Of a stretch of 64,000 nt of DNA, positions 2,630-34,042 are shown one piece after another. Positions within the stretch are counted from its first letter, which is position 1. Each line of letters begins with the position of its first letter. Source of the stretch: an uncultured bacterium (GTDB taxonomy: Bacteria; Verrucomicrobiota; Kiritimatiellia; RFP12; UBA1067); contig CADCOC010000002.1 in the NCBI GenBank assembly GCA_902802945.1, forward strand, positions 9,853-73,852, given 5' to 3'. Under the pieces are notes generated by a model. It was given only the letters and a program-made list of their open reading frames with translations. It did no database searches and was not told the DNA's origin. The translations under genes and the position numbers were made by a program.

Positions 2630-2668
2630 CCCTCCGTGAACCACAGGTGGGGCAGATTTAAGGACTGG

Positions 2669-3040
2669 ATGGCGCTGGTCGTCGCCGGTTGCATGGCGCT
2701 TGCGGCAGTTTGCTGCGGGCGAGTGATTTGTTTTTGTTCCGATGATCCTGATGGATGTGGCGAAGAGTGCCATGTGTGTGAGGAGAACCTGCCAGACGGC
2801 GTGTCCTCGTTCGATCCATGCGATCATCTGTCCTTTGGGTTCGTTGATTTCTGGGACGAAGACGGTGAGGTGACGGTTGACGGGAATGGTATCTTCCCCG
2901 TTGCCCCCGCGTGGGCGTCTGGCATCGCCCGAAACCAGATCCTTCTGCCGCGCCGCCCGCCGTCGCGCGCACATGCGCCGCCGGGCACATCTTCAGACTC
3001 CGTTCTTTTCCGAATGCGCAAGATTCTCCTTTTGTCGTGA
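2669..3040 (+). CDS. Hypothetical Cys-rich small protein (MALVVAGCMALAAVCC...CHVCEE...). It may instead start at GTG 2636.
   Basis: ORF 2636..3040. ATG 2669 is preceded by 'aagga'. The product is Cys-rich with a Pro/Arg-rich C-terminus and has no recognisable family. Confidence 0.3.
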   Translation: MALVVAGCMALAAVCCGRVICFCSDDPDGCGEECHVCEENLPDGVSSFDPCDHLSFGFVDFWDEDGEVTVDGNGIFPVAPAWASGIARNQILLPRRPPSRAHAPPGTSSDSVLFRMRKILLLS

Positions 3041-3102
3041 GGAATGCATCGCGTCCGCTCTGCTTTCAAGGAGCGGTTACGTTTCCATCTTCACCTCAAA
3101 CG

Positions 3103-3116
3103 GGACACGTGTCCCA
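3103..3116. promoter_or_regulatory. Perfect 14-bp palindrome GGGACACGTGTCCC immediately upstream of RBS 'aaggaga' and ATG 3130. It is a candidate operator of the former efflux operon.
   Basis: Read directly. It has a CACGTG core and sits 2 nt before the SD sequence. Confidence 0.45.
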
Positions 3117-3129
3117 AAGGAGAATCATC

Positions 3130-3213
3130 ATGTTTAGAATCTTTATTGCTTCATTACTCGTCGTTGGCCTCGTGACATCCGGATGCACAACCGGGGGGAG
3201 TGGGCGTCCGTGA
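3130..3213 (+). pseudogene. Orphan lipoprotein signal-peptide ORF (MFRIFIASLLVVGLVTSGCTTGGSGRP*). It is probably a remnant of the 5' end of an RND membrane-fusion-protein gene.
   Basis: It has a good RBS, a lipobox LVTSG|C and then a stop after 27 codons. It overlaps the start of the RND fragment in another frame. Confidence 0.5.
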
Positions 3214-4496
3214 CGCGCAAGACGGGGCGCGCAGAGCGCGACCAACATGCGGAGCCGGTTTCGGCGTCGGAGCTGATCGTGCGCGTGGACATGAAGCGAA
3301 ATCCGGACGAGCTGCGCGCGGCGATGAACGCCGTGATCAAGTCCGTGCCGGGCGCGTCGTGCATGATCGGCTATCCGATCGCACACCGCATCAGCGCGGT
3401 CCTCTCCGGCAGCGCGGCGGAACTTTCGCTCAACATTTTCGGCGACAAGCCGGAGGACATCCGCGCCGCCGCCGCGCGCGCGAAGGAGCTGCTCGCGACA
3501 ATGCCGGAGGTCGGCGACTTCCAGGCCAACCGCGAGATCCTCGTCGACACCGTGAAGATCGACTACGACCGCGAGCGCCTCGCGCACGAGGGGTTGACGC
3601 TCGCCGACGCGGGCGAGCAGGTCTCCGCCGCGTTCAACGGACGCGTCCTCGGCACGGTCGCGGAAGGGCAGAACCGCCGCGACGTGACGCTGCGCATGGA
3701 GGAGGGCGAGGCGGACGAAGAGGCCGTGAAGAAACTCCTCATCAAGACGCGGACGGGACGGTTCGTGCGGCTCGACGACATCGCGGACGTCCACCGCGAA
3801 GAGGCGTCCAACCTCGTCATCCACGAGAACGGGCGCCGGCAGGCGCTCATCACGCTCAATCCCGCGCCCGGCGTCTCGGTGGGCGAGCTCGTCAGCTCGC
3901 TGGCGCATCGGCTCGGACCGGAGCTTGCCGCGTTCGGCTGCACGGCGGAGTTCGGCGGCACCTACCAGGCGAACATCAGCGCGCGCCGCACGCTCGTGAC
4001 GTTCTCGGTGGTCCTGCTCTTCGTCGTCTTCTTCGTCCTCCTCGTGGCCACGAAGGCGCCGATGCGCGCGTTCACGGTGATGGCGACGCTGCCGCTCGCG
4101 CTCGTAGGGGCCGTCGGCGCGGTGGCGCTCACGGGGCGGATCGTGTCCATCGCCTCGGCCGTGGGACTCATCACCGTGGCCGGCTTTGTGATCCGGAACG
4201 GGCTGTTGCTCGAGAACCGCTATGTCGAGCTAGAACGTGAAGGGCACGGGCCAATCGAGGCGATCCGTTTCGGCAGCCGCGAGCGGATGGTGCCGATCCT
4301 GATGACCTCGCTCACGACCGTGCTCGGACTCGTTCCGATCGTGGTGGCGCTGGACGTCCCGGGCGGCGAGATCCTTGCGCCGCTCGCGGCGGTGCAGCTC
4401 GGCGGGCTGGTCATCGCGACCGTCGCCGCGCTCGTCGTGGTCCCCGCGCTCTCCGTCCTCATCGCCCCGAAAGCCATGGTACTGGTTCCAAAATGA
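3183..4496 (+). pseudogene. C-terminal ~435-aa fragment of a CzcA/CusA-like (heavy-metal efflux family) RND efflux permease. The N-terminal half is missing.
   Basis: IGYPIAHRISAVLSGSAAELSLNIFGDKPEDIR...VLLFVVFFVLLVATKAPMRAF...LMTSLTTVLGLVPIVVAL matches the second periplasmic and transmembrane repeat of CzcA-type pumps. A full pump is about 1030 aa. The ORF begins mid-domain. Confidence 0.7.
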
Positions 4497-4546
4497 GAAG
4501 ATATTCCTAAGTTTGGAACCCGATAGCTGTATTTCACGGCTATCCG

Positions 4547-4576
4547 TTGCCAAAGTCGGATATATTTGATATACTT
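4547..4576 (+). promoter_or_regulatory. Promoter TTGCCA-N18-(TGa)TATACT upstream of the AAA ATPase gene
   Basis: -35 at 4547-4552, extended -10 TGATATACT at 4568-4576, then RBS AAGGAGG at 4592-4598. Confidence 0.45.
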
Positions 4577-4603
4577 TGGCTCGTAACGACAAAGGAGGTA
4601 CAT

Positions 4604-6019
4604 GTGATTGGAAGGAGAGACGAGTCAAAGGCGTTGAGGACGGCTTACGAGTCGTCCTACTCGGAATTCGTGACGCTTTACGGCCGCCGCCGAATAGGCA
4701 AGACGTTTCTGGTCAACGAAACCTTTGGATACGAATTTGCGTTCCATTGTGCCGGTTTGAAAGGCGAGGGGATGGCGCGGCAGCTTGACAACTTTCGTTT
4801 TGCGCTCCGCCGGTACGGGCATGACAAATGCCCCCGGTTGAAGAGCTGGCTTGAGGCTTTCTATGAATTGGAGATGCTTCTTGAACGGCAGGGTGGTGGG
4901 CGTAAGGTCGTGTTCATCGACGAGATGCCGTGGATGGACACGCACAAGTCCGGTTTTCTTGCCGCGCTTGAGGGGTTTTGGAACGGCTGGGCCACTTCAC
5001 GCAAGGACATCCTGCTCATCGCCTGTGGGTCCGCGACCTCGTGGATCGTGAGAAAAATTAACCGCAACAGGGGTGGACTCCACAACCGCGTCGGGGTTCG
5101 CATCAAGCTGAGTCCCTTTACGCTTGCCGAATGCGAGGAGTATGCGAACGAAAGGCGGCTTGGTTACGACAGGCTAAACATTGCGGAATGTTACATGGCA
5201 CTTGGCGGCGTCGCCTACTACTGGAACCAACTGGAGAAAGGAAAGAGTCCGGAACAGAATTTCAACAGACTCTTCTTCGGCCCCGGCGACGGGCTGAGAC
5301 TTGAGTTTGATGAACTGTATTCTTCTCTCTTCAGAAATCCCGAACCGTACATGCGCATCATTACGGCTCTGGACAAGCGGCGCTCCGGGTTGACCCGCGA
5401 CGAGATCATTTCGGAAATCGGCGCAAGCTGTGGCGGCGGAAAACTGTCCGAGATGCTGGCTGACCTTGAGGAGTGCGGATTCGTGCGGCTGGCGCGTCCG
5501 ATCGGCGGAAAGAATGGCGGCGTGTACCAGCTGGTGGACGACTTCTCGTTGTTCTATCTCCAGTTCGTGAAGCGTTGTCAATCAAGGGATGGCGACTACT
5601 GGACGGACGCAGTCTCGTCTGAGACCAAGAACAACTGGCGAGGGCTGGCCTTCGAGCGCCTTTGTCTGGCGCATGTTCGGCAGATCAAGTTCGCGCTAGG
5701 AATATCCGGCGTCCACACGGACGTGTACTCGTGGCGGACCGAACCTACAGACGAATCGCGAGGTGCGCAGGTCGATCTTCTCATCGACAGGAAGGACGGA
5801 ATCGTCAATCTCTGCGAGATGAAGTACTCCCGGGAGAAATACGCCATCTCAAAGGACGAACATGACAGACTGCAGAACAGGGTTGCGGCGTTCGGCAGAA
5901 TCGCAGGGCGCGGCAAGTCGGTACACCTGACGATGGTGACCACATGCGGGCTTGTGCACAACAAGTACTGGAACGACGTCCAGTCCGAGGTTGTGCTGGA
6001 TGACTTGTTCCGCGCTTGA
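4604..6019 (+). CDS. AAA family ATPase (archaeal-type ATPase_2 + DUF234 architecture)
   Basis: GTG start 5 nt after AAGGAGG. VIGRRDESKALRTAYESSYSEFVTLYGRRRIGKTFLV contains a Walker A motif, and the C-terminal DUF234-like region follows. GC content is noticeably lower than in the neighbouring genes. Confidence 0.75.
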   Translation: MIGRRDESKALRTAYESSYSEFVTLYGRRRIGKTFLVNETFGYEFAFHCAGLKGEGMARQLDNFRFALRRYGHDKCPRLKSWLEAFYELEMLLERQGGGRKVVFIDEMPWMDTHKSGFLAALEGFWNGWATSRKDILLIACGSATSWIVRKINRNRGGLHNRVGVRIKLSPFTLAECEEYANERRLGYDRLNIAECYMALGGVAYYWNQLEKGKSPEQNFNRLFFGPGDGLRLEFDELYSSLFRNPEPYMRIITALDKRRSGLTRDEIISEIGASCGGGKLSEMLADLEECGFVRLARPIGGKNGGVYQLVDDFSLFYLQFVKRCQSRDGDYWTDAVSSETKNNWRGLAFERLCLAHVRQIKFALGISGVHTDVYSWRTEPTDESRGAQVDLLIDRKDGIVNLCEMKYSREKYAISKDEHDRLQNRVAAFGRIAGRGKSVHLTMVTTCGLVHNKYWNDVQSEVVLDDLFRA

Positions 6020-6116
6020 TGGCGTACGGTGGCGGTCTTTTAGTTTTTATTCATCCCGTCGCTCCGAGAGCCACTGCACTGCGCGCCCCTAGCCGATTTC
6101 CCGCCCCGCGTTTTTT

Positions 6117-6125
6117 TGGTATACT
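6117..6125 (+). promoter_or_regulatory. Extended -10 TGGTATACT with the ATG only 6 nt downstream, predicting a leaderless transcript
   Basis: 'tttttttggtatactgttgccATG'. There is no SD between the -10 and ATG 6132. Confidence 0.45.
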
Positions 6126-6131
6126 GTTGCC

Positions 6132-9100
6132 ATGTTCAGCCAGTTTTTCATCAACCGTCCGCGCTTCGCGTTCGTGCTCGCGATTGCGCTCTCGCTCTGC
6201 GGCGTGATCGCCCTCATGCAGCTCCCCGTCGAGGAGTATCCCGAAATCGCACCTGTTACTATCCGCGTAAGCGCCAGCTACCCCGGCGCGAGCGCGCAGG
6301 TGGTGGCGGACACGATCGCGCTCCCCGTGGAGGACCAGATCAACGGCGTGGAGAACGTCCTCTACTACTCCTCCACCTGCAACAACTCAGGTTCCTACTC
6401 CTGCTCCGTGACCTTTGCAAGCGGCGCGGACTCCGACATGGCGCTCGTCAACCTCCAGAACGCTGTCAAGCGCGCCGAGGCGAAACTGCCGTCCATCGTG
6501 AAGCAGCAGGGCATCTCCGTGCAGAAACGCAATTCGGACATGCTCGCGATGTACGCGTTCGCGACGGACGGGAGGAAGTACTCCCTCCAGCAGCTCGGCG
6601 ACTTCGTGGAGCAGAACGTGAAGGAGGCCGTGATGCGCCTCGAGGGCGTGTCCGTGGCGGAGGTGGCTGCCTCCCAGGCATACGCGATGCGCGTGTGGCT
6701 GAACCCCGTGCGCATGAGCGGACTCGGCATCTCGATCTCGGACATCTCGCGCGCCATCGAGGCGCAGAACGTGCAGGCGGCCGCCGGCACGGTCGGAAGC
6801 GAATATTCAAACCGCTACCTCTCCTACAAGCTCAACGTGGACGGTCGCCTGAAGACGGCGGAGGAGTTCGCCGCGATCGTGGTGCGCAACGACCCGGAAT
6901 CCGGCGGACAGGTCTTGCTCGGCGACGTGGCGCGCGTGGAGATCGGCTCGAAGAGCTACGCGGGACGGAGCGCGTTCAACGGACGCGAGTCGATCGGCCT
7001 TTCCGTGTACAAGACCCCCGAGGCGAACTCCCTGGAGGTGGTGGACCGCGTGAAGGCGACGCTCGACGACTGGATGAAGCGTCTCCCCGAGGGCGTGACG
7101 TGCGAGATCGCGAACGACGCGACGGCGTTCACGCGCGTGTTCATGCACGAGATCGTGGCCACGCTTTTCATGGCGCTCGGCCTCGTGGTGCTGATCACGT
7201 GGCTGTTCCTCCAGGACCTCCGCGCCACGCTCGTCCCCGCCGTCGCGATCCCGATCTCGCTCCTCGCGGCGTTCGTGTTCATCTGGGCATTCGGCTTCAC
7301 GATCAACATCCTCACGATGTTCGGCCTCATCCTCGTGATCGGGTCTCTCGTGGACGACGCGATCGTTGTGGTGGAGAACACGCAGACGCTGATGGCCACG
7401 GAAGGACTCTCCGCGAAAGAGGCGGCGTCGAAGTCGATGCGCCAGATCACCGGCGCCGTGATCGCGACGACGCTCGTGACGGTGGCCTGCTACATCCCGC
7501 TCGCGTTCTACGGCGGCATGGTGGGGAAGATGTACATCCAGTTCGCGTTCACGATGTGCGTGGCGCTCTGCCTCTCCACGTTCGTGGCGCTCACGCTCTC
7601 GCCAGTGCTCTGCTCGCTCCTGCTGCGTCCGCCAAAGGCTCGTCCGCCGCGTCTCTTCGCCCCCGTCAACTTCGTGATCGACGGCGCGCGGAAGGGGTAT
7701 CTCGCGGTGGTGCGACTTCTCGTGCGCCACGTGGTGATTTCGGCCCTCCTCTTCGCGGCGGCGGTGGGTGGCTGCTGGTTCCTCAAGGACTGCGTGAAGG
7801 AGACGCTTCTCCCCGACGAGGACAAGGGCATGATCATGATGGACGTGGAGCTGCCGCAGGGCGCCACGCTCGAGCGCACGAACCGCGTGCTGGACGACAT
7901 CCAGAAGCGCATCCAGGGCGTGCCGGGCGTGAAGGGCGTGATGCTGATCTCCGGCAACGGGTCGATGTCCGGCAGTGGTGAACACTGTGGCATGGGCGTA
8001 CTCCTGCTCGACCACTGGGACAAGCGCAAGACGCCCGAGACGCAGGTCGGTTCAATCATCGCAGAGATTCGCAAGCGCACGGCGGACGTCTACGCCGCAA
8101 AGGTGACATGCTTCACGACGCCCGCCATCAGCGGACTCGGACGCCTCGGCGGCGTGGGGTTCAACCTCTGCTCCGACGCCGGGTCGGACGCCACCGCGCT
8201 CGCCGCCGCCGCGCAGGCGTTCGTGCGCCGCATCCAGGAACTCCCCGAGGCCGGGCGCGTGACGTGCGGTTTCCGCGCGGACACGCCCCAGCTGCGTCTC
8301 ACGCTCGACCGACAGAAGGCCAAGTCGCTCGGCGTGGACCCGTCCACCGTGTTCTCGACTCTCCAGAACAAGCTTGCGAGCGTGTACGTGAACGACTTCA
8401 ACAAGGACGGCCGCGCCTACGAGGTGCTCGTACAGTCGCAGGCGGACTTCCGCGCGACGCCGGAGGACATCGCCGACCTCCACGTGCCGGGCGCGAACGG
8501 CGCGATGGTGCCGCTTTCGGCGATCGGCACGGTCGCCTACGAGATCGGTTCGCGCGAGGTCACGCGCTTCAACAAGATGCCGTCCGCGAGCATCAACGCG
8601 CAGGTCGCGCCTGGCGTCGCGCCGCTTGAGCTGATCTCCGCGATCGAGCGCGCGGGCGCGCCGGAGGGCTATCACGTCGAGTGGAGCGAGATGTCGCTCC
8701 AGGAGAAGGAGAACCAGGGACGTCTCGGACTCCTGATGGGACTCGCCGCGCTGTTCGCGTACCTCTTCCTCGTCGCGCAGTACGAGAGCTGGACGATCCC
8801 GCTGCCCGTGATGTGTAGCGTCGTCTTCGCGCTCGCCGGCGCGTATCTTGGGCTGTGGATCACCGGCACGCCGATGAGCATCTACGCGCAGCTTGGCCTC
8901 GTGATGCTGATCGGGCTTTCCGCGAAGAACGCGATCCTCATGGTGGAGTTCTCGAAGCAGCAGCGCGAGGAGGCGGGGTTGTCCGTCGCCGATGCGGCGC
9001 TGAAGGGGGCGGACCTCCGCTTCCGCGCCGTGCAGATGACGGCGTGGAGCTTCCTCTGCGGCGTGCTGCCGCTCGTGCTCGCGACGGGTGCGGGCGCGGG

Positions 9101-9233
9101 GTCGCAGAAGGCAATCGGCATCTCCACGTTCTCGGGAATGCTCGCCTCCACGTTCGTGGGCATCTTCTTCACGCCCGCGCTCTACGCCCTCTTCCAGCGC
9201 CTCCGCGAGTTCGTTCGTCCGTTGGCAAAGTAA
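6132..9233 (+). CDS. RND multidrug efflux permease, AcrB/HAE1 family, full length (1033 aa)
   Basis: MFSQFFINRPRFAFVLAIALSLCGVIALMQLPVEEYPEIAPVTI is a canonical AcrB N-terminus. It has 12 TM-type hydrophobic blocks and two large periplasmic loops. No membrane-fusion-protein gene precedes it. Confidence 0.9.
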   Translation: MFSQFFINRPRFAFVLAIALSLCGVIALMQLPVEEYPEIAPVTIRVSASYPGASAQVVADTIALPVEDQINGVENVLYYSSTCNNSGSYSCSVTFASGADSDMALVNLQNAVKRAEAKLPSIVKQQGISVQKRNSDMLAMYAFATDGRKYSLQQLGDFVEQNVKEAVMRLEGVSVAEVAASQAYAMRVWLNPVRMSGLGISISDISRAIEAQNVQAAAGTVGSEYSNRYLSYKLNVDGRLKTAEEFAAIVVRNDPESGGQVLLGDVARVEIGSKSYAGRSAFNGRESIGLSVYKTPEANSLEVVDRVKATLDDWMKRLPEGVTCEIANDATAFTRVFMHEIVATLFMALGLVVLITWLFLQDLRATLVPAVAIPISLLAAFVFIWAFGFTINILTMFGLILVIGSLVDDAIVVVENTQTLMATEGLSAKEAASKSMRQITGAVIATTLVTVACYIPLAFYGGMVGKMYIQFAFTMCVALCLSTFVALTLSPVLCSLLLRPPKARPPRLFAPVNFVIDGARKGYLAVVRLLVRHVVISALLFAAAVGGCWFLKDCVKETLLPDEDKGMIMMDVELPQGATLERTNRVLDDIQKRIQGVPGVKGVMLISGNGSMSGSGEHCGMGVLLLDHWDKRKTPETQVGSIIAEIRKRTADVYAAKVTCFTTPAISGLGRLGGVGFNLCSDAGSDATALAAAAQAFVRRIQELPEAGRVTCGFRADTPQLRLTLDRQKAKSLGVDPSTVFSTLQNKLASVYVNDFNKDGRAYEVLVQSQADFRATPEDIADLHVPGANGAMVPLSAIGTVAYEIGSREVTRFNKMPSASINAQVAPGVAPLELISAIERAGAPEGYHVEWSEMSLQEKENQGRLGLLMGLAALFAYLFLVAQYESWTIPLPVMCSVVFALAGAYLGLWITGTPMSIYAQLGLVMLIGLSAKNAILMVEFSKQQREEAGLSVADAALKGADLRFRAVQMTAWSFLCGVLPLVLATGAGAGSQKAIGISTFSGMLASTFVGIFFTPALYALFQRLREFVRPLAK

Positions 9234-9284
9234 CCCGCTCAAAAATCCCCTCGCCCTAGGGAGACAGCTTCTACCGCGTGGCTT

Positions 9285-9569
9285 TTACCCGAAGAGGTCG
9301 CTGTGGGTGCCAAGGCGGAAACAGATGAGTTGAAGCTGGCCTTCGACAATCCGGTAGATCAGCACAAGGTCGGATTCGACATGGCAGTCGCGGTATCCCG
9401 CATAGTCGCCAGAAAGCGCGTGGTCGTGGAGCGTTGGCGGAAGCGGCTCTTGGGCGCAGAGGAGGTCGATTACTTTCGTGATCTTTTCCAAGTCCTTGCC
9501 GCGTCGGACTGCCAGTTTGAGGTCTCGGGAGAATTGCCTTGTGAAGATGCGGTTGAGCATGGCAGTCAA
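9285..9569 (-). CDS. yafQ: Type II toxin YafQ/RelE-family mRNA interferase
   Basis: MTAMLNRIFTRQFSRDLKLAVRRGKDLEKITKVIDLLCAQEPLPPTLHDHALSGDYAGYRDCHVESDLVLIYR. It overlaps the antitoxin stop by 4 nt (ATGA). Confidence 0.8.
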   Translation of the reverse strand: MTAMLNRIFTRQFSRDLKLAVRRGKDLEKITKVIDLLCAQEPLPPTLHDHALSGDYAGYRDCHVESDLVLIYRIVEGQLQLICFRLGTHSDLFG

Positions 9570-9877
9570 TCCTCCATGTCCAATGCTGCTTTCAACATTT
9601 CCTCGGTGCTGTTGAAGGGGCCGTATGACGGTTCAAGTCCGGCCATGTCGCGATCAAGGACGGCGCGGGTCTCTGCATTGGGGTATTCGTTTGCCTCCTC
9701 CTCATCTGTGCGGGTTTTGCCCAGGGTGATGCCATGCGGGAAACCACGGTGCTCCAAAGTGTACATGAGAAGGATGTTCATGCCCGTCGACGTGGTCATC
9801 CCAAGGCGGGAGAAAAGAGCATCGGCCCGACGCTTGATTTCGGGTTTGACGCGGAAAGCGATTGTTGACGTAGCCAT
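9566..9877 (-). CDS. dinJ: Type II antitoxin DinJ/RelB family
   Basis: MATSTIAFRVKPEIKRRADALFSRLGMTTSTGMNILLMYTLEHRGFP. The start is at the internal Met of ORF 9566..9952. Confidence 0.8.
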   Translation of the reverse strand: MATSTIAFRVKPEIKRRADALFSRLGMTTSTGMNILLMYTLEHRGFPHGITLGKTRTDEEEANEYPNAETRAVLDRDMAGLEPSYGPFNSTEEMLKAALDMED

Positions 9878-10037
9878 TGCAAATGCTCCTATTTGTTTGA
9901 CGGACGTGGACAGTTTAGCACAATCGAATTGCAGATGCAACAGCCAAAACATGCGGACGGCGCGTTGTGCTACGCAGCCTAGTAGAACGGGCTGCCAGCC
10001 CGTTCAAACTTCACCTCAATCTGCAATTATAAATTTT

Positions 10038-10072
10038 CCCCCTTGCAACAGGCAAGGGGGATTTGGTAAACT
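10038..10072 (+). promoter_or_regulatory. Promoter of the giant gene, TTGCAA(10043-48)-N18-(TG)TAAACT(10067-72). It is overlapped by the hairpin CCCCCTTGC-aacag-GCAAGGGGG (10038-10060).
   Basis: Read directly. The same 'TGGTAAACT' extended -10 occurs before tRNA-Ser at 61750-61758. Confidence 0.4.
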
Positions 10073-10171
10073 TCACTTGACTTGGAGAAGGCATGGCCAG
10101 CGGCAGGGCGGCGAAATGGGAGTTTCGTCGGCAGGCAGGTGGCATGGATGATGATAAAAAGGAGCCCAAAC

Positions 10172-13100
10172 ATGAACACGATAATTCGTAAAATCGGCAT
10201 GGGAGGGGGTAAAACCCTAGTTTCCCTCTTTTCCGGAATCGCGAAGGCCGCAAGAGGCGCAGCGCTTCCGCTGTTGATCGCGGCGAGCGCAATCCTTTCG
10301 GCACGAGGGGACGGCCTCGCCATCACGCCCGCCACGCTGCCGGACGGAATGGAGGGCGTGCAATACGACCAGTGGTTCACCGCCACCGGCGGCGGCGACA
10401 GCCCGAGTTGGCAGTGGTACACCGTGCCCGCCAGTTACGCCACAGCTTCGAGCACCTATCAGGTTTCGGGAAACGAAACGCCGCTCTGGGAAGGTCAGAG
10501 CCAGCGGGGCAACGTGGAATACACCTTGCCGTTCGCGTTCCCGTTCGGGGGCCGCATGATCGACAAGGTCTATGTCAGCCCCGTAGGCGCAATCCTCTTC
10601 GAGGACGATTTCATCGACGACAACTACGTTAGAAACAGCTCGCTCTACTACCGCTATGGCATCGCGGTGTTCTGGTGCGAAACGTCGAAGGTGGAGGCCT
10701 ACGTCGATACGAACGTCGCAAACGAGGTGTCGTTCCGCTTCGAGTCGTTTTCGACCGGCACCGGCACGTGGGCTGCGCGCGCGACGCTCAAGAAAGACGG
10801 CACCATCCGCTGCTCCTACCGGCAGACGGGCAACACCTTCTCGGACACGACGCGCGTGATCGGCGTCGCCTTCAGTGGCAACTACCTGCCGGTTGGCGCG
10901 GAGTCGGACGGCATCCCGGCGACGGACATCGTCTTCACCACCTACGGTCTTCCCGCCGGCCTCCAGTTCAGCTCAGGCTCATGGGATCCCGACACCTCCC
11001 TCTATCGCCCCCGTCTCTACGGCAAGGTCGCCGAGGCGTGCGACGTGAAGTTTGCCGTGCGCGTTTACGACGACAACGACAGTTCGGTGGCCGCAACCAA
11101 CTTCTATGCCTTCTCCATCGTCCGCAACCCGAACCGTCCGCCCGTGATCGACGCCTTCGCGCCCGCCGACACGAACGAGGTGATCTTCATCAACCTCGGC
11201 GACACGGTCAACTTCAACGTGGCCGTCACGGACGAGGCGGGCGATCCCTTCGACGTGAAGTGGGAGTTCCTGTCCAGAGGCAACTCCTACTATTCGACGC
11301 CCGAGACCGTCGGCACGGAGACGAACCTCGTCTTCGAGGCGACGCAGGCGCTCTACGTGATGCAGGACTCGGACTACCAGCCTCTTCTCCGGTGTACCGT
11401 CTCGGACGAGTGCTGGACGAACATCGTCACGTGGAAGGTCAACATTCGCCGCGACTGGCATGTGGACGCCGCCGCCGATCCCGGCACCGCCGACGGCTCG
11501 GCGGATCATCCGTGGCCGAGCCCGCACATGGGCGGCCTGCAGCGGGGCGACACGGTCTTCGTCGCGCCCGGCACCTACGTCTGGGGTCCGTCCGACAGCA
11601 CGCAGATCGGCATCGCGGGCGGCGTGACGTTCCGCTCCACCGGCAGCGCCGCCGACACGAAGTTCGTCTTCCAGAAGAAGGGCTACATCCAGGCCCGCTA
11701 CTACAAGAACTCGACGTTCCAGGGCTTCTCCTTCGACGGCATCTGCTTCTACAACTGCGACCTCGTCGACTGCGAGATCCGGAACTACGACAGCGCCAAC
11801 AGCTACGACGGCGCCATCCGCGGCTGCTCGCTCCTGCGCTGCTACGTGACCGGCGGCACGGGCAAATTCCACTGCTACCAGACCGACATCGTCGATTCCA
11901 CCATCGCCGGCAACACGATCAACGTCCCCTCCACCGAGAGCGCGGAGTGCCGTGCCGTCGGCAAGGACTGCACGCTGGCGAACTCCATCGTCGTGAACAA
12001 CCTCGCGCTCGACGGCGTGGAGGCCAACGTCTACACCGACACCACCTATAGCCCGACCGCGGTAACGAACTCCTGCACGATCCCCGCGATGACGAAGCTC
12101 GGCCCCGGCAACTACGAGGCGCAGCCGACGTTCGTCTCGCTCGCGGGCGGCGACCTGCGCCTGCGCGTCGGCTCGGCGTGCATCGACGCGGGCGACCCCG
12201 CGAACAACACGGGCGCGTACAAGGGCCCCGGCGTCGAGGGCTTTGCCGTATACGCGTTCACCGATCCCGTGCGCGGCATCTTCTCGGACGGATCTGAACT
12301 GCAGGTTGTGGCGGCAGGCGCGACGGCCTACGTCATGGTCAAGCCGCTCGCCGACCGCGCGTTCCTCGGCTGGGTGACGAACGGTGTCGAAGTCGCGGGC
12401 GTGACAACTTCGGAACTCGCCATCGAGAACATCGACTGCGACTACGAGGTCGAGGCGCTTTTCGAATACAGGGAATTCTGGGTAAATCCGACCGAGGCGG
12501 ACGACTCCGGCGACGGCACCGCCGCCGCGCCGAAGAAGACCATCGCTGCCGCCGCCGCGCTCGCGATCGACGGCGAGACGATCCGCCTCGCGGAGGGCAC
12601 GTTCGAGCCGTTCGCCCTCCTGGAATCGCCCAAGGTCACGCTCCTCGGCGCGGGCCCGGACAAGACCTTCATCGACGGCGGCGGCACGAACTGGTGCGTC
12701 CGTCTCGGCTCCAACGCGACGCTCAAGAACGTCGCCGTGGTCAACGGCAAATACACGAGCTGGTCCAGCTACGCGGGCGGCGTCACCGGCGGCACGATCG
12801 AGAACTGCGTCGTCTCGAACTGCGTCTCCAGCCAGTCGGCCGGCGGCGTGTCCGGCGCGACGGTCGTGAGCTGCCTCGTCACGGGCAACACCACCGACCA
12901 GGAATATGGTGGCTTCGGAGGCGGCGCGTATCAATGCAAGGTCTACAACTCCACCATCGTCGGCAACGTCCATTCGTTCAACTGCGCCGGCGGTGCCAGT
13001 GTCTGCTACCTCTTCAACAACATCATCACCGGCAACAAGTCCAACGGCGGCAGCGACACGTATGACGTCTACGACCCCAAGGACGCGAATTTCAGTTCCA

Positions 13101-16100
13101 GCGTCAGCTCGAACGTCGCGTATTCCGCCAACCTCATCGGCTCCGATCCGTGGTTCGTCGACGCCGCGAACGGCGACTACCGCCTGATCGCGGGCTCGCC
13201 CGCAATCGACGCGGGCGGCGAGGCGCTCGGCTTCGACTTCGAGCACGCGACCGACCTCTCGGGCGGCCGTCGCATCAAGAACGGTATCGTCGACTACGGA
13301 TGCTACGAAGGCGGCGTCGTGACCGGCGCGCCCGCTGCGCCCGTCGCGACCGGCTCGAGCGCCAAGGCCGTGAAAGGCATTCCGTTCACGTGGGAGGCCG
13401 TGCCGAATGCGGCGGAGTACCGCATCTACCGCGGAACCGCCAACAATGTCGCCGCCGCGACGCTCCTCGGCTCCACGACCGCCACCTCCTACCTCGACCT
13501 CTCTACGACGGGTGGCACGGACTACTTCTACTGGGTCTCGTCCTACAACACCACCTACGGCGAAAGCGAGAAGTGCGGACCCATCGCCGTGACGTCCTAC
13601 GCAGACCTCAAGATCGAAACGGCGTCGCTTCCCGCCGCGACGGAGGCCGTCCCGTATTCGGTGCAGCTCGAATGCTCCGGCAACGTGGGCGAAGCGACGT
13701 GGAGCCTGCCGTATACGGTGGTCACACGTGGCGAGGGCAGCACCTTCAACGGCGACGTGGGTGTCGTGGTCGGCGACGACTGGCCGGAGAAGGACACATC
13801 CTACCAACACAACCCCATCGTTACTCTCCCGTTCTCGTTCACGTGGTTCGGCGAGCAATACGACAAGGTGCGTCTCTCGAAGTTTGGCGCGCTCTATTTC
13901 GGCGTTGGCACAGGAGTGTCCGTTTCGTGGTCTCCCTGGGCCATCGACGAAGAGCCGAAGATTGTCGTCAACGAAGGTCCTTACTCTTCCTACTATTATG
14001 TCGAGACTTCGGAATTTCGCGTCGACAGTCAGGCGGACCATGTGACGATCGTCTGGAAGGGCACGTGCCACGGGAAAACCGTCGAGTTCTCCGCGACGCT
14101 CAATTCCGACAACACCGTCCGTCTCGCCTACGGCTCCAACGAGGTAGGAGCGTATGTGGCCTACTCCAATGGGTCGGCGGACACCGTGAATACGCTCTAC
14201 AGGGCGGAAGGCGACTTCTCCAACGCGGACGACTATGTGATCACGTGCCTCCCGAACGAAAGCCACCTCGTGCTCTCGGAGGGCGGGCTTCTCTCCGGAA
14301 TCGAGGACGACGCGGGAGAGTATCTGGTCTCGGTGCTTGTGACGGACGACGCGAACGGCGACACCGCCTGGAAGACCTTTGCGCTCACCGTGAACGTGAA
14401 CGCGAACAAGCGTCCCGTCATCGACGCGGTCACGCCTGACGAAGACGAGGTGCTCGTCCTCGCGGGCGACAGCCAGGAGTTCACGGTTACGGCGCACGAC
14501 CCCGAAAGCGCGGCGCTCAGCTACAGCTGGTATCTCGACGACGCGCTCGTCTCGACCGCCGGGGCGAACTGGACCTACGCCCCGACCGACGCCGACCGCG
14601 GGAGACATTCGCTCGTCTGCGAAGTGGCCGACGCGCTCTGGACAAATGGACAGGTCTACGCCGAGTGGGAAGTCACCGTGGGCGCCAAGCTTTACGTCGA
14701 CGTCGTCAACGGCACGACGAACGGAACGGGAACGGCCGAGTCGCCGTTCAAGACCCTGCAGCAGGCGGAATCGTGGATCGGCGGAGGTGAAACTGTGTTC
14801 GTCGCGCCGGGCACCTACGCGCCGGTTCGCGTGTGGGGCGGCGGGATGCCCGACCCCGTGACGTTCCGCGCGACGGGAAGCGCGGCGGAGACGATCATCG
14901 ACGGCGGCAGCACCAACATCTGCGTGGACGACTACCACTGCTCGAAGAACTTCACCTTCGTCGGCTTCACCCTGCGCAACGGCGGGGACGAGGATTATGC
15001 CGGCACGGCGTCCTATGGCGTCAACCTGAAGGACTGCGTTGTCACGGGCTGCAAGAGCTGGCGCTGCACGATCTACGGCGCGAACGTCGAGAACTGCCAG
15101 ATCTACGGCAACACGGCGCTTCGCCACGGCGCGGCCGTCGGCTTCTGCAACGTCGTCAACAGTCTCATCTACGGCAACACGTCCGGCGAAACCGGCGTCG
15201 TATACCGCTCCACCCTCGACCGTTGCACCGTCTACGGCAATACCGCCCTGGTCGGCGGCGGTCTGGACGGCCTCTCGACGGCTGACCACTCGATCGTCTG
15301 GGGCAATACCGCGACTGCTGACGCTTCCACGGCCAACTACGAGCCGTCGACGAACGGCGTGCAGTTCACGTACTCCTGCACGACGCCGCTGCCGGAAGGG
15401 GAGGGCAACATCGCGTCCGATCCGCTCTTCGTGAACGCGGCGGGCGGCGACTTCCACCTCGCGGACAGCTCGCCGTGCCTTGCGGCCGGCATGGGCTGCT
15501 ACGCCGAGGGCGGCGGGGAACCGGTCGTGACGCAGTTCACCGTGACGTTCGACGCGAACGGCGGCACGTGCGCCGAGGCCTCGCGCCAGGTCGTGTCCGG
15601 CGCGGCGGTCGGCACTCTCCCGACCCCGACGCGCACGGGCTACACATTTGCCGGCTGGTACACCGCCAAGACGGGCGGGACGCAGGTTACGGCCGCGACG
15701 ACGGTGACGGCGGCCGTCACGTGGTACGCGCGTTGGACGGAACTTCCTCCGGCGTATACGTTGACGATTGAGGACGGCGTGCTGAAGGGCTACACGGGCG
15801 ACCTCCCGGCGACGCTCGCGATTCCGGCGACGGTGACGGCGTTCGGCGCAAACCTCTTCAAGGGCGCGACGGCGCTCACCGCCGTAACGGGCGGCGCGAA
15901 TGTGACGGCCTGCGGCGCGGGCGCGTTCCGCGACTCGGGCATCTGGAAGGCCGCGCCGAACGGACCGGTCGTGGTGTGCGGCGTGCTTGTGGGCTGGAAG
16001 GGGACGGTTCCCGCAACGGCGACCGTGCCATACGGCGTGAAGGTGATCGCGGATGGCGCGCTTGCGGGAGCCGCGAACCTCGCGACGCTCTATCTGCCCG

Positions 16101-19100
16101 ATTCGCTCGTCTCCATCGGCGCGGGCGCGTTCAAGGACTGCACGAAGCTCGACGACGTGTTCGGGCTTGAAGACGGCGTGACCGTTGCGGACAACGCCTT
16201 CGAAGGCACGCTCCGCAACACCTTCCGCTTTACGTGGTCTGGCCTGGTCGTGACCGGCTTCAAGGGTCCGCTCCCTGCCGCGCTCGTCATACCCGCCAAC
16301 GCCACCGGCATTGGCGTGAATGCGTTCAAGGGGCAGACGACGATTACCTCGCTGACAATCGAGGGCGAGAACGCCGTCAACGTCGGCGCAGGCGCGTTTG
16401 AGGGATGCACGGCGCTCGCGACGGCCACCATCGGCGGCGGCGCGACAATTGCCGCGACTTCGTTCAAGGGCTGCGCGGCGCTGACGAATCTCACCGTCGG
16501 CGGTTCGGCCACAATCGCCGCCGAATCGTTCAAGAATTTCGCGGCGCTGAAGACCGTTTCCATCGGTGGCGACGCAACAATCGGCGCGTCGGGGTTCGCG
16601 GGCTGCACGGCGCTTAATACTTTCACGGCCGGCGGTGGCGCAACGGTCGGCGCGTCCGCGTTTGAGGGCTGCACGACCCTTGAGACTTTCACGGCCGGCG
16701 ACACCGTTTCCATCGCCACGAATGCCTTCAAGGGTTGCGTCGCGCTTGCCACCGCAGACTTCGGGAAAGTTTCCGCACTTGGCGAGAGTGCGTTCGAGGG
16801 CTGCTCGTCGCTCGCATCGCTTGAGCTGGCGGAGGGCATCGAGGAGATCGGTGCGGCGTCGTTCAAGGGCTGCGCCTCGCTTAAGGCGATCGATCTCCCG
16901 GCGTCCGTCACGACGATCGGCGTGTCCGCCTTCGAGGGATGCTCGAAGCTGGCGACCGTCACGGGCGGCGAGAACGTGCGCGTTATCCGCACGGACGCCT
17001 TTGCCGGAACGGCGTGGTACGACGCGGCCCCTGCGGAGGGCTTCGAGGAAGTCTCGCTCGGCCACGTGCTCTTGCGCGTGAAGGGCGATGTCCCCGCCTC
17101 TTACGAGATCTCGTCGAACGTCTGGACGGTCGCGAACGGCGCGTTCGCTGGCGTCACCACGCTCACCGAACTCTATATCGGCACGGAGGTGGTCTCGCTC
17201 TGGGATCGCGCGTTTGCGGGTTGCACCTCGCTCGGCAGCGTGACCATTCCGAGCGGCTGCCGCGAGTTCGGCGACTACCTCTTCGACGGCTGCACGTCGC
17301 TCACCAACGTCTTCTTCCGCGGCCACGCACCGACGAACGACGTGCCGCACCTCTTCGCGGGCACGCCCGAGACGCTGAAGGTCCGCATCAAGGAAGGAAG
17401 CCGCGGATGGGTATATCCCGGCGCCGATTCCGACTACCGTCCCGCCCGCTGGCCATACCAGACGGCGGATGGTAGAAGGTGGCAGCGTGTCGCGGACGAC
17501 CTGAACCGCGCCGTTTACGAGCCGGACGACGAGCCCGGTGTCATTCGTAGTGTCATCGTCGACGGCATCATCACGAACGACACGATATGGGTCGGCGGCA
17601 GGGTGTACGAGATTCAGCGCAGTTGCTCTGTCAAAGGGAACGCGACGCTGACGGTCGAGGCCGGCGCAATCGTAAAGTTGCCGTTTGGGAGAGTTTACGC
17701 CTATGACCCAAGAGGGTTGAACGTCTATGATTCGGGCTCGCTTGTGGTCAACGGCACGCTCGCCAATCCCGTGGTGTTCACATCGATCCGCGACGACTCG
17801 TGGGGCGGCGACACGAACGGCGACGGCAACCGCTCCGAACCGTATCCCAGCGAATGCGGGGGCGTGTATGTTTATTCACGGGATGCAACTGTTCACGCGA
17901 CCTACGCGAAGTTCCTGTATGGGCAAGCCGTAAACACCTTTAGCGCTACAGCGTGTCTGATGAGCTATGGCCGGACCAACACCCTTTACGGTTGCGAGTT
18001 CAGCCATTCGGCGATGGACGGATATTTCGGCTGCGGACGGTTGGAGAATTGCGTCTTTACCGACTGCGACCGCGGACTTGTCTCTGTGGATAGGGGTGTT
18101 GTGGCCGTGAACTGCGTCGCATACGGCAACCGTATCGGTTTCTTCTCGCACACGTCGTACATGTACATAACGAACTGCATTTCCGCGTTCAACTCGGAAT
18201 ACGGCATCTCGGGCGACGGTAGCGCCGTCTTTTCCACGCGGAGCTGCCTCTGGACTCCCGGCGGCGAGAACACACGTTATAAGAATGGCGGGAAATCGTG
18301 GAACACCTACAACGTCGACAACATCGAGGCCGATCCGCTCTTCCTCGACGCGGAGAACGGGGACTTCCGGATTTCCGCGAGTTCGCCATGCGTGGACGCG
18401 GCCTGGGGCGACGTGGCGCCGGAGTATGACTACTACGAGCAGCCGCGCATGGATGTGAGGTTCGTCGAGAACACGGGCAAGCCGAACGCGGAGGGAATCT
18501 ATCCCGACATCGGCATCTACGAGGTGCCGGGCACGACGGAGCGTCCCGTGATGAATCTTGAGGTGGAGAGCGTGTCGTTCACGCCCGCGACGGTTGCGCC
18601 GGGCGAGACGCTGGCCGTCACCTACACGATGAAGAACGCGGGAGACGCGGCGGCGACGGGGTCGATCCGCGACGTGGTGCGCATCAAGTCCGCCGCGAAC
18701 GGCGGCACGATGGTGGCTGGCACGGTGACGCAGAACTACAGCCTTGAAACGAACGCCGTCGCCACGTTCACCGCGCGCGTAACGATGCCCGCCGCTCCGG
18801 CCGGCAACTGGTACGTGGGCATCGACGTGAACCCGAACCGCGACGTGTTCGAGCAGAACCTCCAGAGGAATTCGATGTGGACGGAAAATACGGTCGAGGT
18901 GACGCTGCCGGGTCTGACCACTTCGTCCTCGACAAGCGTGACCATCCCGGCCGGAACGACGAAGGGGTGGGCGTTGATCGATCTGCCGGCCGAGGGCGGC
19001 GTGGTGACGGTCACGGGCGCGAACGCGGCGGCGATCCGGGCGATGGTCGCGAACGGACACATGCCGACGGTGGTGATGAACGACGCGGCGTCCTTCGCGC

Positions 19101-22100
19101 AGGGCACGACAACGGCCGTGCTCGTGGTGCCGGCGCGCGCGGCGGGCGAGACGATGTACCTTGCCGTCGAGAACACGGGGATTTCGTCCGCGACGGTGAC
19201 GGTCAAGGTCGAGAAGCTGACGACGCAGCTGTGGTCGGTCTATCCCGAGATTGCGGCGAACGTGGGCGACATGGGCTTCACGTTCACGGGCGCGGGGCTG
19301 ACGGCGACGAGCGACATCCGTCTCGGCGGCATCAAGGCCAAGAGCGTGACGGTCGTAGACTCCGCGAACGTGTACGCTGTCTTCGACATCCACAACATCG
19401 CGGCAGACCGGTACTACGACGTGACGGCGGACGGCAAGACGCTCCGCGACGCGGTGTACATCAACAAGGTGGCGAAGGGGCCGATCCTCGAAGCGAAGCT
19501 GGAACTGCCGGAGCGCACGCGCGACAACCGCATCTATACGGGCTACGTGGTCTATGAGAACACGGGCGACACGCAGATGAACGTGCCGATGTTCATCGTG
19601 AAGCGCGGCAAGGGCGACACGACGACGATGCTGGGGGCGTACGACGCGGAGACGCTGACCTCCAACGCCGTCGTCGTGGCGGGCATCGGCTCGACGCATC
19701 CGGCGGGCATCCTGAAGCCGGGCGACACGGGCCGCCTGCCGTTCAAGTTCAAGCCGGTGGGCGACTACAATCTCTCGCTCAGGAAGTGGGTCAAGACGAA
19801 GGACGACGTGGCGGCGATGGCCACGCGCCTCAACCTCCGCGGCCGCACCGTCTGGAACGGTGACGACATCTACTACTCGGCGCTCAACGTGCGCAACGGC
19901 ACCCCCGTGGCGGGCGTCAGCGGATGGTGTCTCGACTCGCGCACCCGCGAGCCGCTGGAGGGAATCGCGCTCGTATTGGTGGCGACGAACACCGAGGCGT
20001 CGGCGGGAACCGCCAATAGGCGCGCATTCAGCACAACGACCGACGCAAACGGATACTTCCAGTTCGGTCTGCTGCCGGACGGACTCTACGGCTTCACGGC
20101 GTCCGGCAGGGCGCGGGTGGTTTCCACGGCGACCGTCGAGGTCTCTGGCCAGAAGGATGTCAACGGCGTCGAAGTCCTGGCGTTGCCGCCGACGAGGATA
20201 CACGGCTACGTCGTCGGCTCCGACGGCACCCCGGTGCAGTACGGGCATGTCGTGCTGCGCGAAGGGGACATGATGATAGGCGAGACGACCGAGACGGACG
20301 GCTTCGGCGCGTATTCGTTCGAGGGCATCGGCGACGGCACATACGACGTCCTGGCCGAGGCGATCGGCGTGTACGGTGCGGCGATAAAGACGAACGTCGC
20401 GGTGAACGTGACGAACGTCGACGTCAGAGTCGACCTCGAAATGCCGGCGCTCGCGAGCATTGCGGGCACGGTGACGCCCGGCGGCGCTCCCGTGGACGGC
20501 GGTATCGTGTCGGTGCTGTCGCTGGCGGACGGTGAGACGACGACCGTCGGGGTCGACACGAACGGCACGTATTCCGCAGACGGCGTCACGCCGGGCGAAT
20601 GCGAAGTGAAATACTCCGGTGGCGGAAAGTTCTCGCGCATCGCGCTGACGGTCGCGGCCGGCGAGAACAAGCTCGACATCGCCGCGCAGGCCGCGCCGAT
20701 CTTCGGGGCGACGTCCGCCAGGGCGTTCGTGGAGGCGGGCGCGTCCTTCGAGGCGACGTTCTGCGTCCGCGAGCCGTCGACGAACGACGTGTCCTACGCC
20801 TGGGACTTCGGCGACGGAAGCGCAACCGTCGTCACCGCCGCCCCTGTCGTGTCGCATGAATTCACCAGGACGGCGGATGAGAACCGGTTCACGGTCAAGC
20901 TGACCGTCACGAGGGCCGACGGGACGAGCGAGATATGCGTGGTGCGCGAGGCGTTCAGCCTGCTGGCGCCGATCGAGACGGAATACCAGGACAACGCGAT
21001 CATCCTCTCGGTGGCGAACCGCCACAACGCGGGGACGCTGGAGTTCGTGGACTTCGACCCGAACGGCGCGGCCGAGGGCACTGTCATGCGGCTCAAGGGC
21101 GAGGCGGCGATTCCGCTCGACGGAGCTGTCGTGATGGTCGGCTACATAGACGAGAAGACCGGCGACGTCACGAGCGGCATCCGCAGGATCGTCTCGCACA
21201 CGACCGGTACCGACGGGGTGGTCACGTGCACGACGGAGGGCGAAGGGCTCAGTGCCGTGTTCAAGCAGATCGGAGTCAGCACGTCCGACGCCTTGGAGGT
21301 GACGCCGGAGGAGGAACAGGAGTCCGTGGCGTTCAAGGTCAAGTACGCGAATAAATTTAAAGGCGCCATCAGCGACGCCGCGGCGGCGGCGGTAAGCGGA
21401 CTGGGCGAGCTCGCGAAGAAGACCGCTTCGCATCTCAACAAGGGCGGAAAGCTGATCGGTGATGTCAACCTGTCGCTCGGGTGCAAGGTCGGAGAAGACT
21501 GCCTTGCGGGGCGTTTCTCGACGGAAACCGCGAAGATCGAGCGCGAAATCACAGTCCCGACATACGACGAGCCGGACAGCTTCTACAATATGTACAGCGG
21601 CAACGAGTGGGTGCCCTACCGCACGAAGATATACACCAACAACGTGTGGCGCTTCACGTACACGATGCATGTGGACGTCACGCCGTATCTCCAGGCCAAC
21701 GGATCGTTTGGGGTGGGTCTCGAGAAGAGGACGGACAAGTGCGAACTGGACCTTTCCAAGTACCTGAAGAAGAAAAAGGATAAGAATAAGAAGGAAGAAG
21801 TCCAAGAGGTCGACGCCGGACCGGAGGTGCCGATAGTGATCGCGGGGGTCCCCATCGCGAAGTTACGCCCGGTGCTGCAGTTCCGTCCGTATCTCTTCGG
21901 CGGCGTCAACGGTGCGGCGCGGATGAACCTGAGGTTCCACGGCGACCTCGCGTTCACCATTTCGGTCGAGAACGACATAAGGATGCCGACGGCCTCCTGC
22001 GCGGCGCCTGGATTCAAGATCGACAAGTGGATCGAGAACGTCTCGGACGAGTTCTCCGGGTCGTTCGAGGGCGGCGTTGGGGTCGTGCTGGCGTTGAAGT

Positions 22101-24685: not shown

Positions 24686-24737
24686 GTTGCGCGCTAATGT
24701 TTCCACGCGAGTGGCGCATTGCCAGAGGGGGCGGGAT

Positions 24738-24747
24738 ATGGTAGAAT
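24738..24747 (+). promoter_or_regulatory. Extended -10 TGGTAGAAT, with an in-frame GTG 7 nt downstream. This is a candidate leaderless recJ transcript.
   Basis: 'gatatggtagaatatgggacGTGaat'. GTG 24755 is in frame with ORF 24719..26401. Confidence 0.4.
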
Positions 24748-32094: not shown

Positions 32095-32113
32095 GTTTGA
32101 AAAGGAGAAACAA

Positions 32114-33331: not shown

Positions 33332-33397
33332 CCGCAGCACGACGCGGGGATATTGTGATACGGCATGTCCAAATCTAAAACGGAGACCTGTTGAAAG

Positions 33398-34042
33398 ATG
33401 CGGCTTTACCATGGATCTAAATCTGGCTTGACGGGGACGATCGCCCCCGTTAGCCGTGATGTCTGCGACTTCGGACGTGGCTTCTACATGGGCACGGAGA
33501 AGACGCAGCCGCTTACGCTCATCTGCCATGGCGAGTCGCCTAAGTTCTACGAGATCGACTATGATCTTGACGGGTTGCGTGTATATCGTTTTGAGGCAAA
33601 CTTGGACTGGGCCATGTTCGTGGTGTGGAACAGACGGGCGATTCCTGAACGGCTCAAGCCGTATTACGACGAAAAGTTCCTGCCAATAGTGCAATCGAAC
33701 GACGTGATTGTCGGCAAGATCGCCAATGACCGCATGGTTGTGGTGTTGGACTGGTTCTTTCAGGGATTCATTTCCGACATCGGACTTCTGGAGTCGCTTC
33801 AGGCGCTTAACCTCGGCGACCAGTACTGCGCAAAGACGGCGGAGGCTTGTACGCGCGTCAGAATCGTGAACGAAAAGTCGCTTTCGCCCAACGAATGCGA
33901 AATGTTGCGCGTCAAATCAGAGAATCAGCGCAAACTCGCCGTAAGGATGGTGGATCGCATCAGGCTCCTCCATCGCCGCGATGGAATGATCTTTCAGGAA
34001 ATCATCGAGCGAGACACGGGGAGGAAATGGGATGAACCTTGA
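33398..34042 (+). CDS. DUF3990 domain protein
   Basis: MRLYHGSKSGLTGTIAPVSRDVCDFGRGFYMGTEKTQPLT matches the DUF3990 N-terminal signature (LYHGS...DFG.GFY). This is the first gene of the low-GC island. Confidence 0.7.
   Translation: MRLYHGSKSGLTGTIAPVSRDVCDFGRGFYMGTEKTQPLTLICHGESPKFYEIDYDLDGLRVYRFEANLDWAMFVVWNRRAIPERLKPYYDEKFLPIVQSNDVIVGKIANDRMVVVLDWFFQGFISDIGLLESLQALNLGDQYCAKTAEACTRVRIVNEKSLSPNECEMLRVKSENQRKLAVRMVDRIRLLHRRDGMIFQEIIERDTGRKWDEP

Follow-up and report, generated by a model that had tools for sequence, protein, structure and literature searches.

Start codons adjoining −10 boxes as candidate leaderless starts in an uncultured Kiritimatiellae lineage

It is well established that ribosomes can bind directly to a start codon located at the 5′-end of an mRNA, as in the leaderless mRNAs of lambda cI (transcribed from PRM) and Tn1721 tetR in Escherichia coli, which start at the A of the AUG and lack a Shine-Dalgarno (SD) sequence. 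In Actinobacteria and Deinococcus-Thermus, leaderless genes are marked by −10 boxes positioned 6–8 nucleotides (nt) from the start codon (PMC6028130, PMC3160421, PMC12340547, PMC4007540). Within the Planctomycetes-Verrucomicrobia-Chlamydiae (PVC) superphylum, 10% of the transcription start sites mapped by Cappable-seq in Akkermansia muciniphila (Verrucomicrobiota) are located at annotated start codons, and transcription starts follow a pyrimidine(−1)/purine(+1) rule (PMC4782308). One survey classified 63% of the genes in Kiritimatiellae as SD-type (PMC10783764). The main text of three surveys of leaderless genes (PMC3898074, PMC6028130, PMC3160421) makes no mention of the PVC phyla, and a literature search found no report specific to leaderless transcripts in Kiritimatiellota or Planctomycetes. 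Here, we analyzed a stretch of 64,000 nt (the window; contig CADCOC010000002.1, positions 9,853 to 73,852 of the forward strand, assembly GCA_902802945.1) from an uncultured bacterium, in which an earlier note, made from the sequence alone, had proposed leaderless transcripts for three genes: an RND efflux permease gene (hereafter, the pump), recJ, and a small open reading frame (ORF) encoding a Cys-rich protein. The closest database proteins belong to a Kiritimatiellae bacterium, and the closest genomes are the rumen metagenome-assembled genomes (MAGs) RUG10619 and RUG572. Comparison with orthologous loci (denoted by L numbers) indicates that the −10 boxes preceding these three genes are very probably promoters of leaderless mRNAs.

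Start sites of the pump, recJ and the small ORF

The pump coding sequence (plus strand, 6132–9233; 1033 amino acids) is preceded by the extended −10 element TGGTATACT at 6117–6125, which consists of TGG (6117–6119) and TATACT (6120–6125) and has no usable −35 element upstream. A 6-nt discriminator, GTTGCC (6126–6131), places C at −1 and A at +1, such that ATG 6132 is both the start codon and the predicted transcription start. Because an in-frame TAG is present at 6090, translation can start only at ATG 6132; positions 1–1020 of Pfam ACR_tran align to residues 2–1021, as expected of a full-length RND permease, and approximately 55 of the 59 listed homologs begin with MFSQFFI or a near variant. 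No purine-rich SD is present in the 25 nt before the ATG. A decayed terminator at 6100–6117, composed of the right arm CCCGCCCCGCG and a T7 tract (6111–6117) next to a GC-rich segment, directly abuts the −10 element; it is reduced to the right arm and T tract in the window, L001 (RUG10619) and L111. The GC hairpin and its U7–8 tract are intact in L083 and L099, where folding places their end exactly at the pump −10, and L130 contains the same hairpin arms as judged by sequence, without folding. A terminator that ends at the −10 in L083 and L099 implies that a separate promoter is required and leaves no space for any other promoter or for a leader.

The pump box is found in the form TGnTATAMT at 6, 7 or 9 nt before the ATG in 13 orthologous metagenome loci. 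The spacing is 6 nt in the window, L001, L081, L083, L111, L130, L085, L087 and L092, 7 nt in L086, and 9 nt in L082, L088 and L099. The DNA upstream of the pump in L085, L086, L087 and L092 (76–79% protein identity) cannot be aligned with that of the window, and the box and its spacing are nevertheless kept. Two orthologs have other arrangements: in L084 (79%), the sequence GGAGGGAG is located 4 nt before the ATG, that is, an SD occupies this position instead, and in L090 (55%), the stop codon of the preceding ORF lies 3 nt before the ATG. Two further arrangements were seen at pump loci. In L085 (2566–2616) and L086 (5950–6003), which carry 77% identical orthologs, the genes for the membrane fusion protein (MFP) and the RND permease are divergent with approximately 45 nt between their ATGs, and two back-to-back TGCTATAAT boxes are each positioned 6–7 nt from their own ATG, in a very compact leaderless-type arrangement. 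In L130 (2990–3070), the small ORF is joined in frame, at FCSEDP, to a pump-derived 5′ part that comprises the terminator, the −10 box and the first 14 codons (MFSQFFINRPRFAF); the fusion arose either naturally, by a recombination that captured the promoter, or as a chimera during assembly.

The recJ coding sequence (plus strand, 24755–26401; 548 amino acids; Pfam DHH, DHHA1 and RecJ_OB) begins with a GTG located 7 nt downstream of the extended −10 element TGGTAGAAT (24739–24747), and a −35 hexamer, TTGCCA (24719–24724), is positioned 17 nt from the −10. Proteins of the RecJ clade (77–98% identity) share the N-terminus M-x-LHPIVERLL, in which residue 2 is variable, and more distant RecJ proteins have a longer N-terminus. 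The start assigned by the ORF tool, TTG 24719, was rejected because it coincides with the −35 hexamer and would add residues that are not conserved. The promoter reads TTGCCA-17-TGGTAGAAT-7-GTG in the window, L001 and L125, TTGCAT-17-TGGTAAAAT-7-GTG in L002 and L126, and TTGCCA-17-TGATAGAAT-7-GTG in L123. Thus, the pattern of a −35, 17 nt and TGnTAnAAT recurs, and the distance to the GTG is always 7 nt in five lineages, while the spacer sequences (atgggac, atggcgc, accagcc, aaggccc and accggtc) differ at most positions. The recJ of L120 (77%), which starts 19 nt after a thioredoxin gene, has no promoter or −10 box, and that of L127 (63%) overlaps the preceding gene (GTGA).

The small ORF (plus strand, 2636–3040; 134 amino acids) heads an apparently degraded efflux operon. 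Its promoter, TTGACG-17-TATAAT (2599–2627; −35 at 2599–2604 and −10 at 2622–2627), matches the consensus at 11 of 12 positions; the −10 lacks the TGn (TAGTATAAT) and is therefore non-extended. GTG 2636 is located 8 nt past the −10, and an alternative in-frame start, ATG 2669, is preceded at 4 nt by AAGGA (2660–2664). The family to which the product belongs comprises 19 homolog clusters. Residues 1–11 counted from GTG 2636 (MNHRWGRFKDW) are conserved as protein in P0245–P0247 and P0250; they supply the charged n-region in a signal that resembles those of lipoproteins (MNHRWGRFKDW-MALVVAGC). The codon corresponding to ATG 2669 is GTG in L128 (P0246) and GCG in L131; ATG 2669 was rejected as the sole start because this Met is not conserved in homologs. 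The arrangement is TATAAT-8-GTG in the window and L128, TATAAT-8-ATG in L129, and TGGTACAAT-9-ATG in L131, in which TGGTACAAT replaces the TATAAT box.

The small Cys-rich family has no Pfam match. Its members (window 2636–3040, L130 3022–3372 and L131 889–1293) share the motif CFCSDDPDGCGEECHVCEE and an invariant C-terminus, RRILLLS, and the gene opens operons with the order small ORF, 61-amino-acid ORF, outer-membrane factor (OMF), MFP and RND; the product could bind metal and act as an accessory to, or a sensor for, the pump. The GC content at third codon positions (GC3) of the small ORF is 0.64, which is well under that of its neighbors, and its promoter is adjoined upstream by a PD-(D/E)XK (PDDEXK_2, Rpn-type) nuclease/transposase gene on the minus strand (1702–2466). 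Many of the homologs sit on contigs that are very short and have many members, a hint that repeated or mobile DNA is close by.

The positions that the earlier note had assigned to the pump (box ending at 6125, ATG 6132 and no SD between them) and to recJ (box ending at 24747 and in-frame GTG 24755) are exact, and the −35 of recJ is an addition to what it had described. At the third site, the TATAAT upstream of GTG 2636 is present as claimed; it ends at 2627 rather than 2629, the spacing is 8 nt rather than 6–7 nt, and the −10 is not of the extended type. A conserved SD-led alternative start, which the earlier note had named as evidence against leaderless transcription, was found in the orthologs of none of the three genes, including the small ORF with its unconserved ATG 2669.

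Promoter distances, initiation modes and alternative explanations

The window was scanned for TGnTAnnnT with at least five of six matches to TATAAT. This analysis identified 12 strong extended −10 boxes, of which 11 are on the gene-bearing strand and nine are intergenic and just upstream of genes. Among these, only the pump and recJ boxes are 6–7 nt from a start; six others are located 27–51 nt before starts, each with a clear AAGGAG-type site. For example, the leadered promoter of the AAA/DUF4143 ATPase gene, TTGCCA-17-TGATATACT (plus strand, 4547–4575), is followed by the SD AAGGAGG (4592–4598) and GTG 4604, and at 49471–49510 (plus strand), TGGTATAAT is followed by 28 nt containing AAAGGA and then by ATG 49508, both of which provide internal controls; similar leadered cases are found at 34459, 50691, 56977 and 10064. 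The last of these belongs to a giant gene, in which TTGCAA-18-TGGTAAACT (10043–10072) precedes the SD-led ATG 10172. Its TTG 10082, located 9 nt past TGGTAAACT, was considered as a fourth leaderless start and rejected, as the SD-led ATG 10172 opens a typical signal peptide. TGATATACT is also present at 61603–61611 (plus strand), with a 12-nt gap before tRNA-Leu (61624), indicating that this motif type acts as a promoter without a role in translation. The occurrence of the box before SD-led genes and tRNA genes indicates that the extended −10 is the ordinary promoter type of this organism.

Among the 27 window genes, three have a TANNNT at 6–8 nt and no SD, and approximately 18 others have GGAG or AGGA at 4–13 nt; the leaders of other window genes span 20–90 nt and contain AAGGAG sites. 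No GGAG, GAGG or AGGA was found within 3–13 nt of the pump, recJ or small-ORF start. An Rfam scan of the whole window detected five tRNAs only, with no riboswitch or leader RNA at the three start sites. The proposal of the earlier note that other genes use AAGGAG-type leaders, and that two modes of initiation coexist, agrees with these counts of SD-bearing genes and of boxes 27–51 nt upstream.

In 246 kb of related contigs, which were gathered via pump and recJ, the distances between extended −10 boxes and the first ATG or GTG that opens an ORF have a bimodal distribution, with 10 sites at 6 nt, 10 at 7 nt and three at 9 nt, and the rest scattered between 28 and 59 nt. A total of 24 of 57 boxes are positioned at 6–9 nt, compared with 2.3 expected. 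When the same script was applied as a control to 1.16 Mb of Firmicutes-type recJ loci, only 5 of 785 boxes (0.6%) were at 6–9 nt, and leaders were mostly 20–39 nt. The same architecture is present at no fewer than nine further unrelated flanking genes, several of which open with typical MKK/MKN signal peptides; they include genes for a sigma-54 activator, a lipid A acyltransferase, GH129, a pyruvate-carboxylase-like protein, a cellulase, a helix-turn-helix protein, a secreted protein and the MFP divergent from the pump (45 nt between ATGs). In the 31 leaderless-type cases collected, the base at −1 is C in 29 and T in two, and a purine is found at +1 in all 31; among the SD-led window genes, a pyrimidine is at −1 in approximately 9 of 22. 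This preference fits the rule for transcription starts and is indirect support for a transcription start at the start codon. The TGn is present in at least 23 of the 31 cases, and in more after correction of the register of six of them. The TGn and the −35 appear to compensate for each other, as the small ORF, which has no TGn, has a good −35; their function is predicted from sequence. A more distant Kiritimatiellae contig (L133) contains one gene with a box-adjacent start, and no extended −10 box was found in 23 kb of L132, a distant Kiritimatiellia contig with a GC content of 0.67, from which it follows that the leaderless habit may be restricted below class level.

Several points weigh against leaderless transcription. 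Within the window, the pattern TGNTANNNT-N6-RTG occurs twice compared with 0.82 expected in shuffles, and the N7 pattern three times compared with 0.69, neither of which is significant; similarly, 2 of the 12 strong boxes have an ORF-opening start at 6–9 nt compared with 0.40 expected (binomial P = 0.06, window only). The pooled statistics are inflated, as the loci were gathered via pump and recJ orthologs, and the independent flanking cases number approximately nine. Gene callers prefer the SD-led in-frame ATG 2669 of the small ORF, which yields 123-amino-acid forms. GTG, with which recJ and the small ORF begin, functions poorly as a leaderless start in E. coli, although mycobacteria and Deinococcus do use it. 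Finally, only remnants of the terminator that precedes the pump are left in the window and L001, and transcription probably also reads through from the preceding gene.

The window-only counts, being non-significant, shift the case to the verified N-termini and to conservation in orthologs. These counts, within the range of the shuffles, and the P value given above are what would be expected if −10-like hexamers lay near start codons by chance and had no function. This explanation is hardly credible and has effectively been refuted by the comparative data: the box is conserved in orthologs with divergent flanks, the lineage shows the excess of 24 of 57 boxes over 2.3 that is reduced to 0.6% in the control taxa, and the −1 position is a pyrimidine in 31 of 31 cases. 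The spacing appears to be under selection, as it is retained in orthologs while the flanks diverge (pump, 13 loci; recJ, five; small ORF, four).

The preference of gene callers for ATG 2669 raises the question of whether the starts are mis-assigned, such that translation really begins further downstream, at an in-frame codon that has a ribosome-binding site (RBS) of its own, and the −10 drives an mRNA with a short leader. AAGGA is positioned 4 nt before ATG 2669, most database homologs of the small ORF are called there, and codon 3 of recJ is an in-frame TTG. Against this, the next in-frame start of the pump (GTG, codon 15) would delete the universally conserved MxxFFIxRP at the start of the first transmembrane segment; recJ has no downstream SD and an N-terminus conserved from codon 1–2; and in the small ORF, residues 1–11 are conserved and P0246/L128 and L131 have another residue in place of the internal Met. 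Mis-assignment is thus very unlikely, and the starts are fixed by Pfam and TAG 6090 for the pump, by homolog N-termini for RecJ, and by the conserved extension for the small ORF.

The decayed terminator bears on another explanation, in which longer leadered transcripts, arising by read-through or from a distant promoter, are translated without an SD, and the AT-rich box is an unstructured or S1-binding landing site for the ribosome. An AT-rich patch before the start would reduce local structure in a GC-rich genome (window GC approximately 62%; GC3 of native genes 0.8–0.9), the terminator remnants in the window and L001 would permit read-through, and SD-less genes exist in the class, in which approximately 63% of genes are SD-type (PMC10783764). 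However, a landing site needs no TG at −15/−14, no final T, no −35 at exactly 17 nt and no pyrimidine at −1; a strong terminator ends at the box in L083 and L099; the same box is found before tRNA genes and 27–90 nt upstream of SD-led genes; and the distances from box to start are sharply peaked at 6–7 nt. As a general explanation it is unlikely. Because the upstream terminator is decayed, the pump of this strain may additionally be translated from read-through transcripts.

Leaderless transcription of the three genes, the interpretation given in the earlier note, is supported by the true N-termini, by the spacing kept in orthologs, by the enrichment across the related contigs and by the lack of an SD. 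In the proposed mechanism, a sigma-70-type RNA polymerase would recognize the near-consensus −10, with the help of the TG in the pump and recJ promoters or of a −35 with a 17-nt spacer in those of recJ and the small ORF. Transcription would start at the purine 7–9 nt downstream, which is the A or G of the ATG or GTG, after a C, such that the transcript would begin with 5′-AUG or 5′-GUG, with at most approximately 3 extra nt in the variants with a 9-nt spacer. A ribosome carrying initiator tRNA would then bind the 5′-terminal start codon directly, with no SD contact. Both the position of the 5′-end and the mechanism of translation are inferred from comparative sequence evidence. We propose that the leaderless mode serves first or stand-alone genes and coexists with SD-led initiation on leadered or operon-internal genes. 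The orthologs that are located in operons (L084, L127, L090 and L120) switch to an SD, a start/stop overlap or the absence of a −10, which is the expected switch of mode.

Organization of the surrounding locus

In L001, taken as the ancestral order, the small ORF, OMF, MFP, RND1, pump (RND2) and recJ are tightly packed, and the −35 of recJ starts 3–4 nt past the stop codon of the pump. Compared with L001, approximately 4.2 kb of the first operon is absent from the window at ~3207–3210 (window 2923–4476 compared with L001 1–5792). The genes for the outer-membrane factor and the adaptor are absent, as is the part of the first RND gene that encodes the N-terminal half; the window retains a lipoprotein signal peptide (ATG 3130) beside the C-terminal half of the RND permease (3183–4496, Pfam positions 592–1020). 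This loss represents either a degraded efflux operon or an assembly artefact. Two segments of the window are absent from L001. One is a 1.6-kb segment (4477–6087) between the two RND genes, adjoining the decayed terminator upstream of the pump, that contains the AAA/DUF4143 ATPase gene with its own TTGCCA-17-TGATATACT and AAGGAGG. The other is a 15.5-kb segment (9215–24715) that separates the pump from recJ and contains the giant ORF (ATG 10172 to 24685), which encodes approximately 4,840 amino acids with a signal-peptide-like N-terminus.

The tRNA genes of the window form two clusters: Leu-Ser-Gly on the plus strand (61603–61940, starting 12 nt after TGATATACT) and Leu-Glu on the minus strand (56569–56732). 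The region 32000–40000, which contains several small genes, has a GC content of 0.52–0.56 and a GC3 that is also below that of the rest, and DUF3990-like neighbors occur in related loci; this region may have been horizontally acquired.

Comparison with known leaderless systems

These data raise, as a tentative view that we hold slightly short of even confidence, the idea that the rumen Kiritimatiellae lineage is an unrecognized leaderless-rich PVC group, in which at least about a fifth of transcription units would use −35-less extended −10 promoters fused to the start codon. If so, the conserved GUG-initiated leaderless recJ would be part of a wider pattern, to which the ultra-compact layouts (terminator, −10 and ATG within 25 nt) and the divergent pairs with 45 nt between starts would also belong, and the ribosomes of this lineage would handle 5′-terminal AUG and GUG efficiently beside a strong canonical SD system. 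The mechanism itself is known; it is placed here in a phylum for which no report was found, and no new mechanism is opened. Its significance would lie in adding a further PVC phylum to the groups in which frequent leaderless expression is documented, in offering clean natural examples of orthologs that change between leaderless and SD-led modes on moving in or out of operons, and in better annotation of MAGs from rumen Kiritimatiellae. Such starts are misplaced by gene callers that are tuned to SD sequences: most database entries for the small ORF lack 11–19 codons, and some recJ annotations extend into the gene's own −35.

The candidates resemble the leaderless genes of high-GC phyla in having a −10 a few bp before the ORF, no SD and a predicted AUG or GUG at the 5′-end, as well as a spacing requirement, an optional −35 and SD-led genes alongside. 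Unlike the degenerate TANNNT of high-GC phyla, the Kiritimatiellota boxes are near-consensus (TATACT, TATAAT and TAGAAT) and mostly TGn-extended, and the leaderless share here, approximately 3 of 27 window genes or 20–25% of recognizable promoters, appears lower than the 47–60% in Deinococcus deserti. In the loci compared here, as in Actinobacteria and the group C genomes of GeneMarkS-2 (PMC3898074, PMC6028130, PMC3160421), a Pribnow box is located 6–8 nt from the starts of some genes that appear to be first in operons, and RBSs are found on other genes; GTG is tolerated as a leaderless start, and orthologs switch modes. With Akkermansia, this lineage shares the superphylum, the gut habitat and, as predicted here, a mixture of leaderless and leadered transcripts, whereas Akkermansia belongs to another phylum, is SD-poor and has experimentally mapped transcription start sites, compared with the strong AAGGAG sites and comparative sequence evidence reported here. 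In contrast to lambda cI and Tn1721 tetR, which are rare, AUG-only exceptions, the arrangement recurs here in many housekeeping and envelope genes, with a conserved GUG included.

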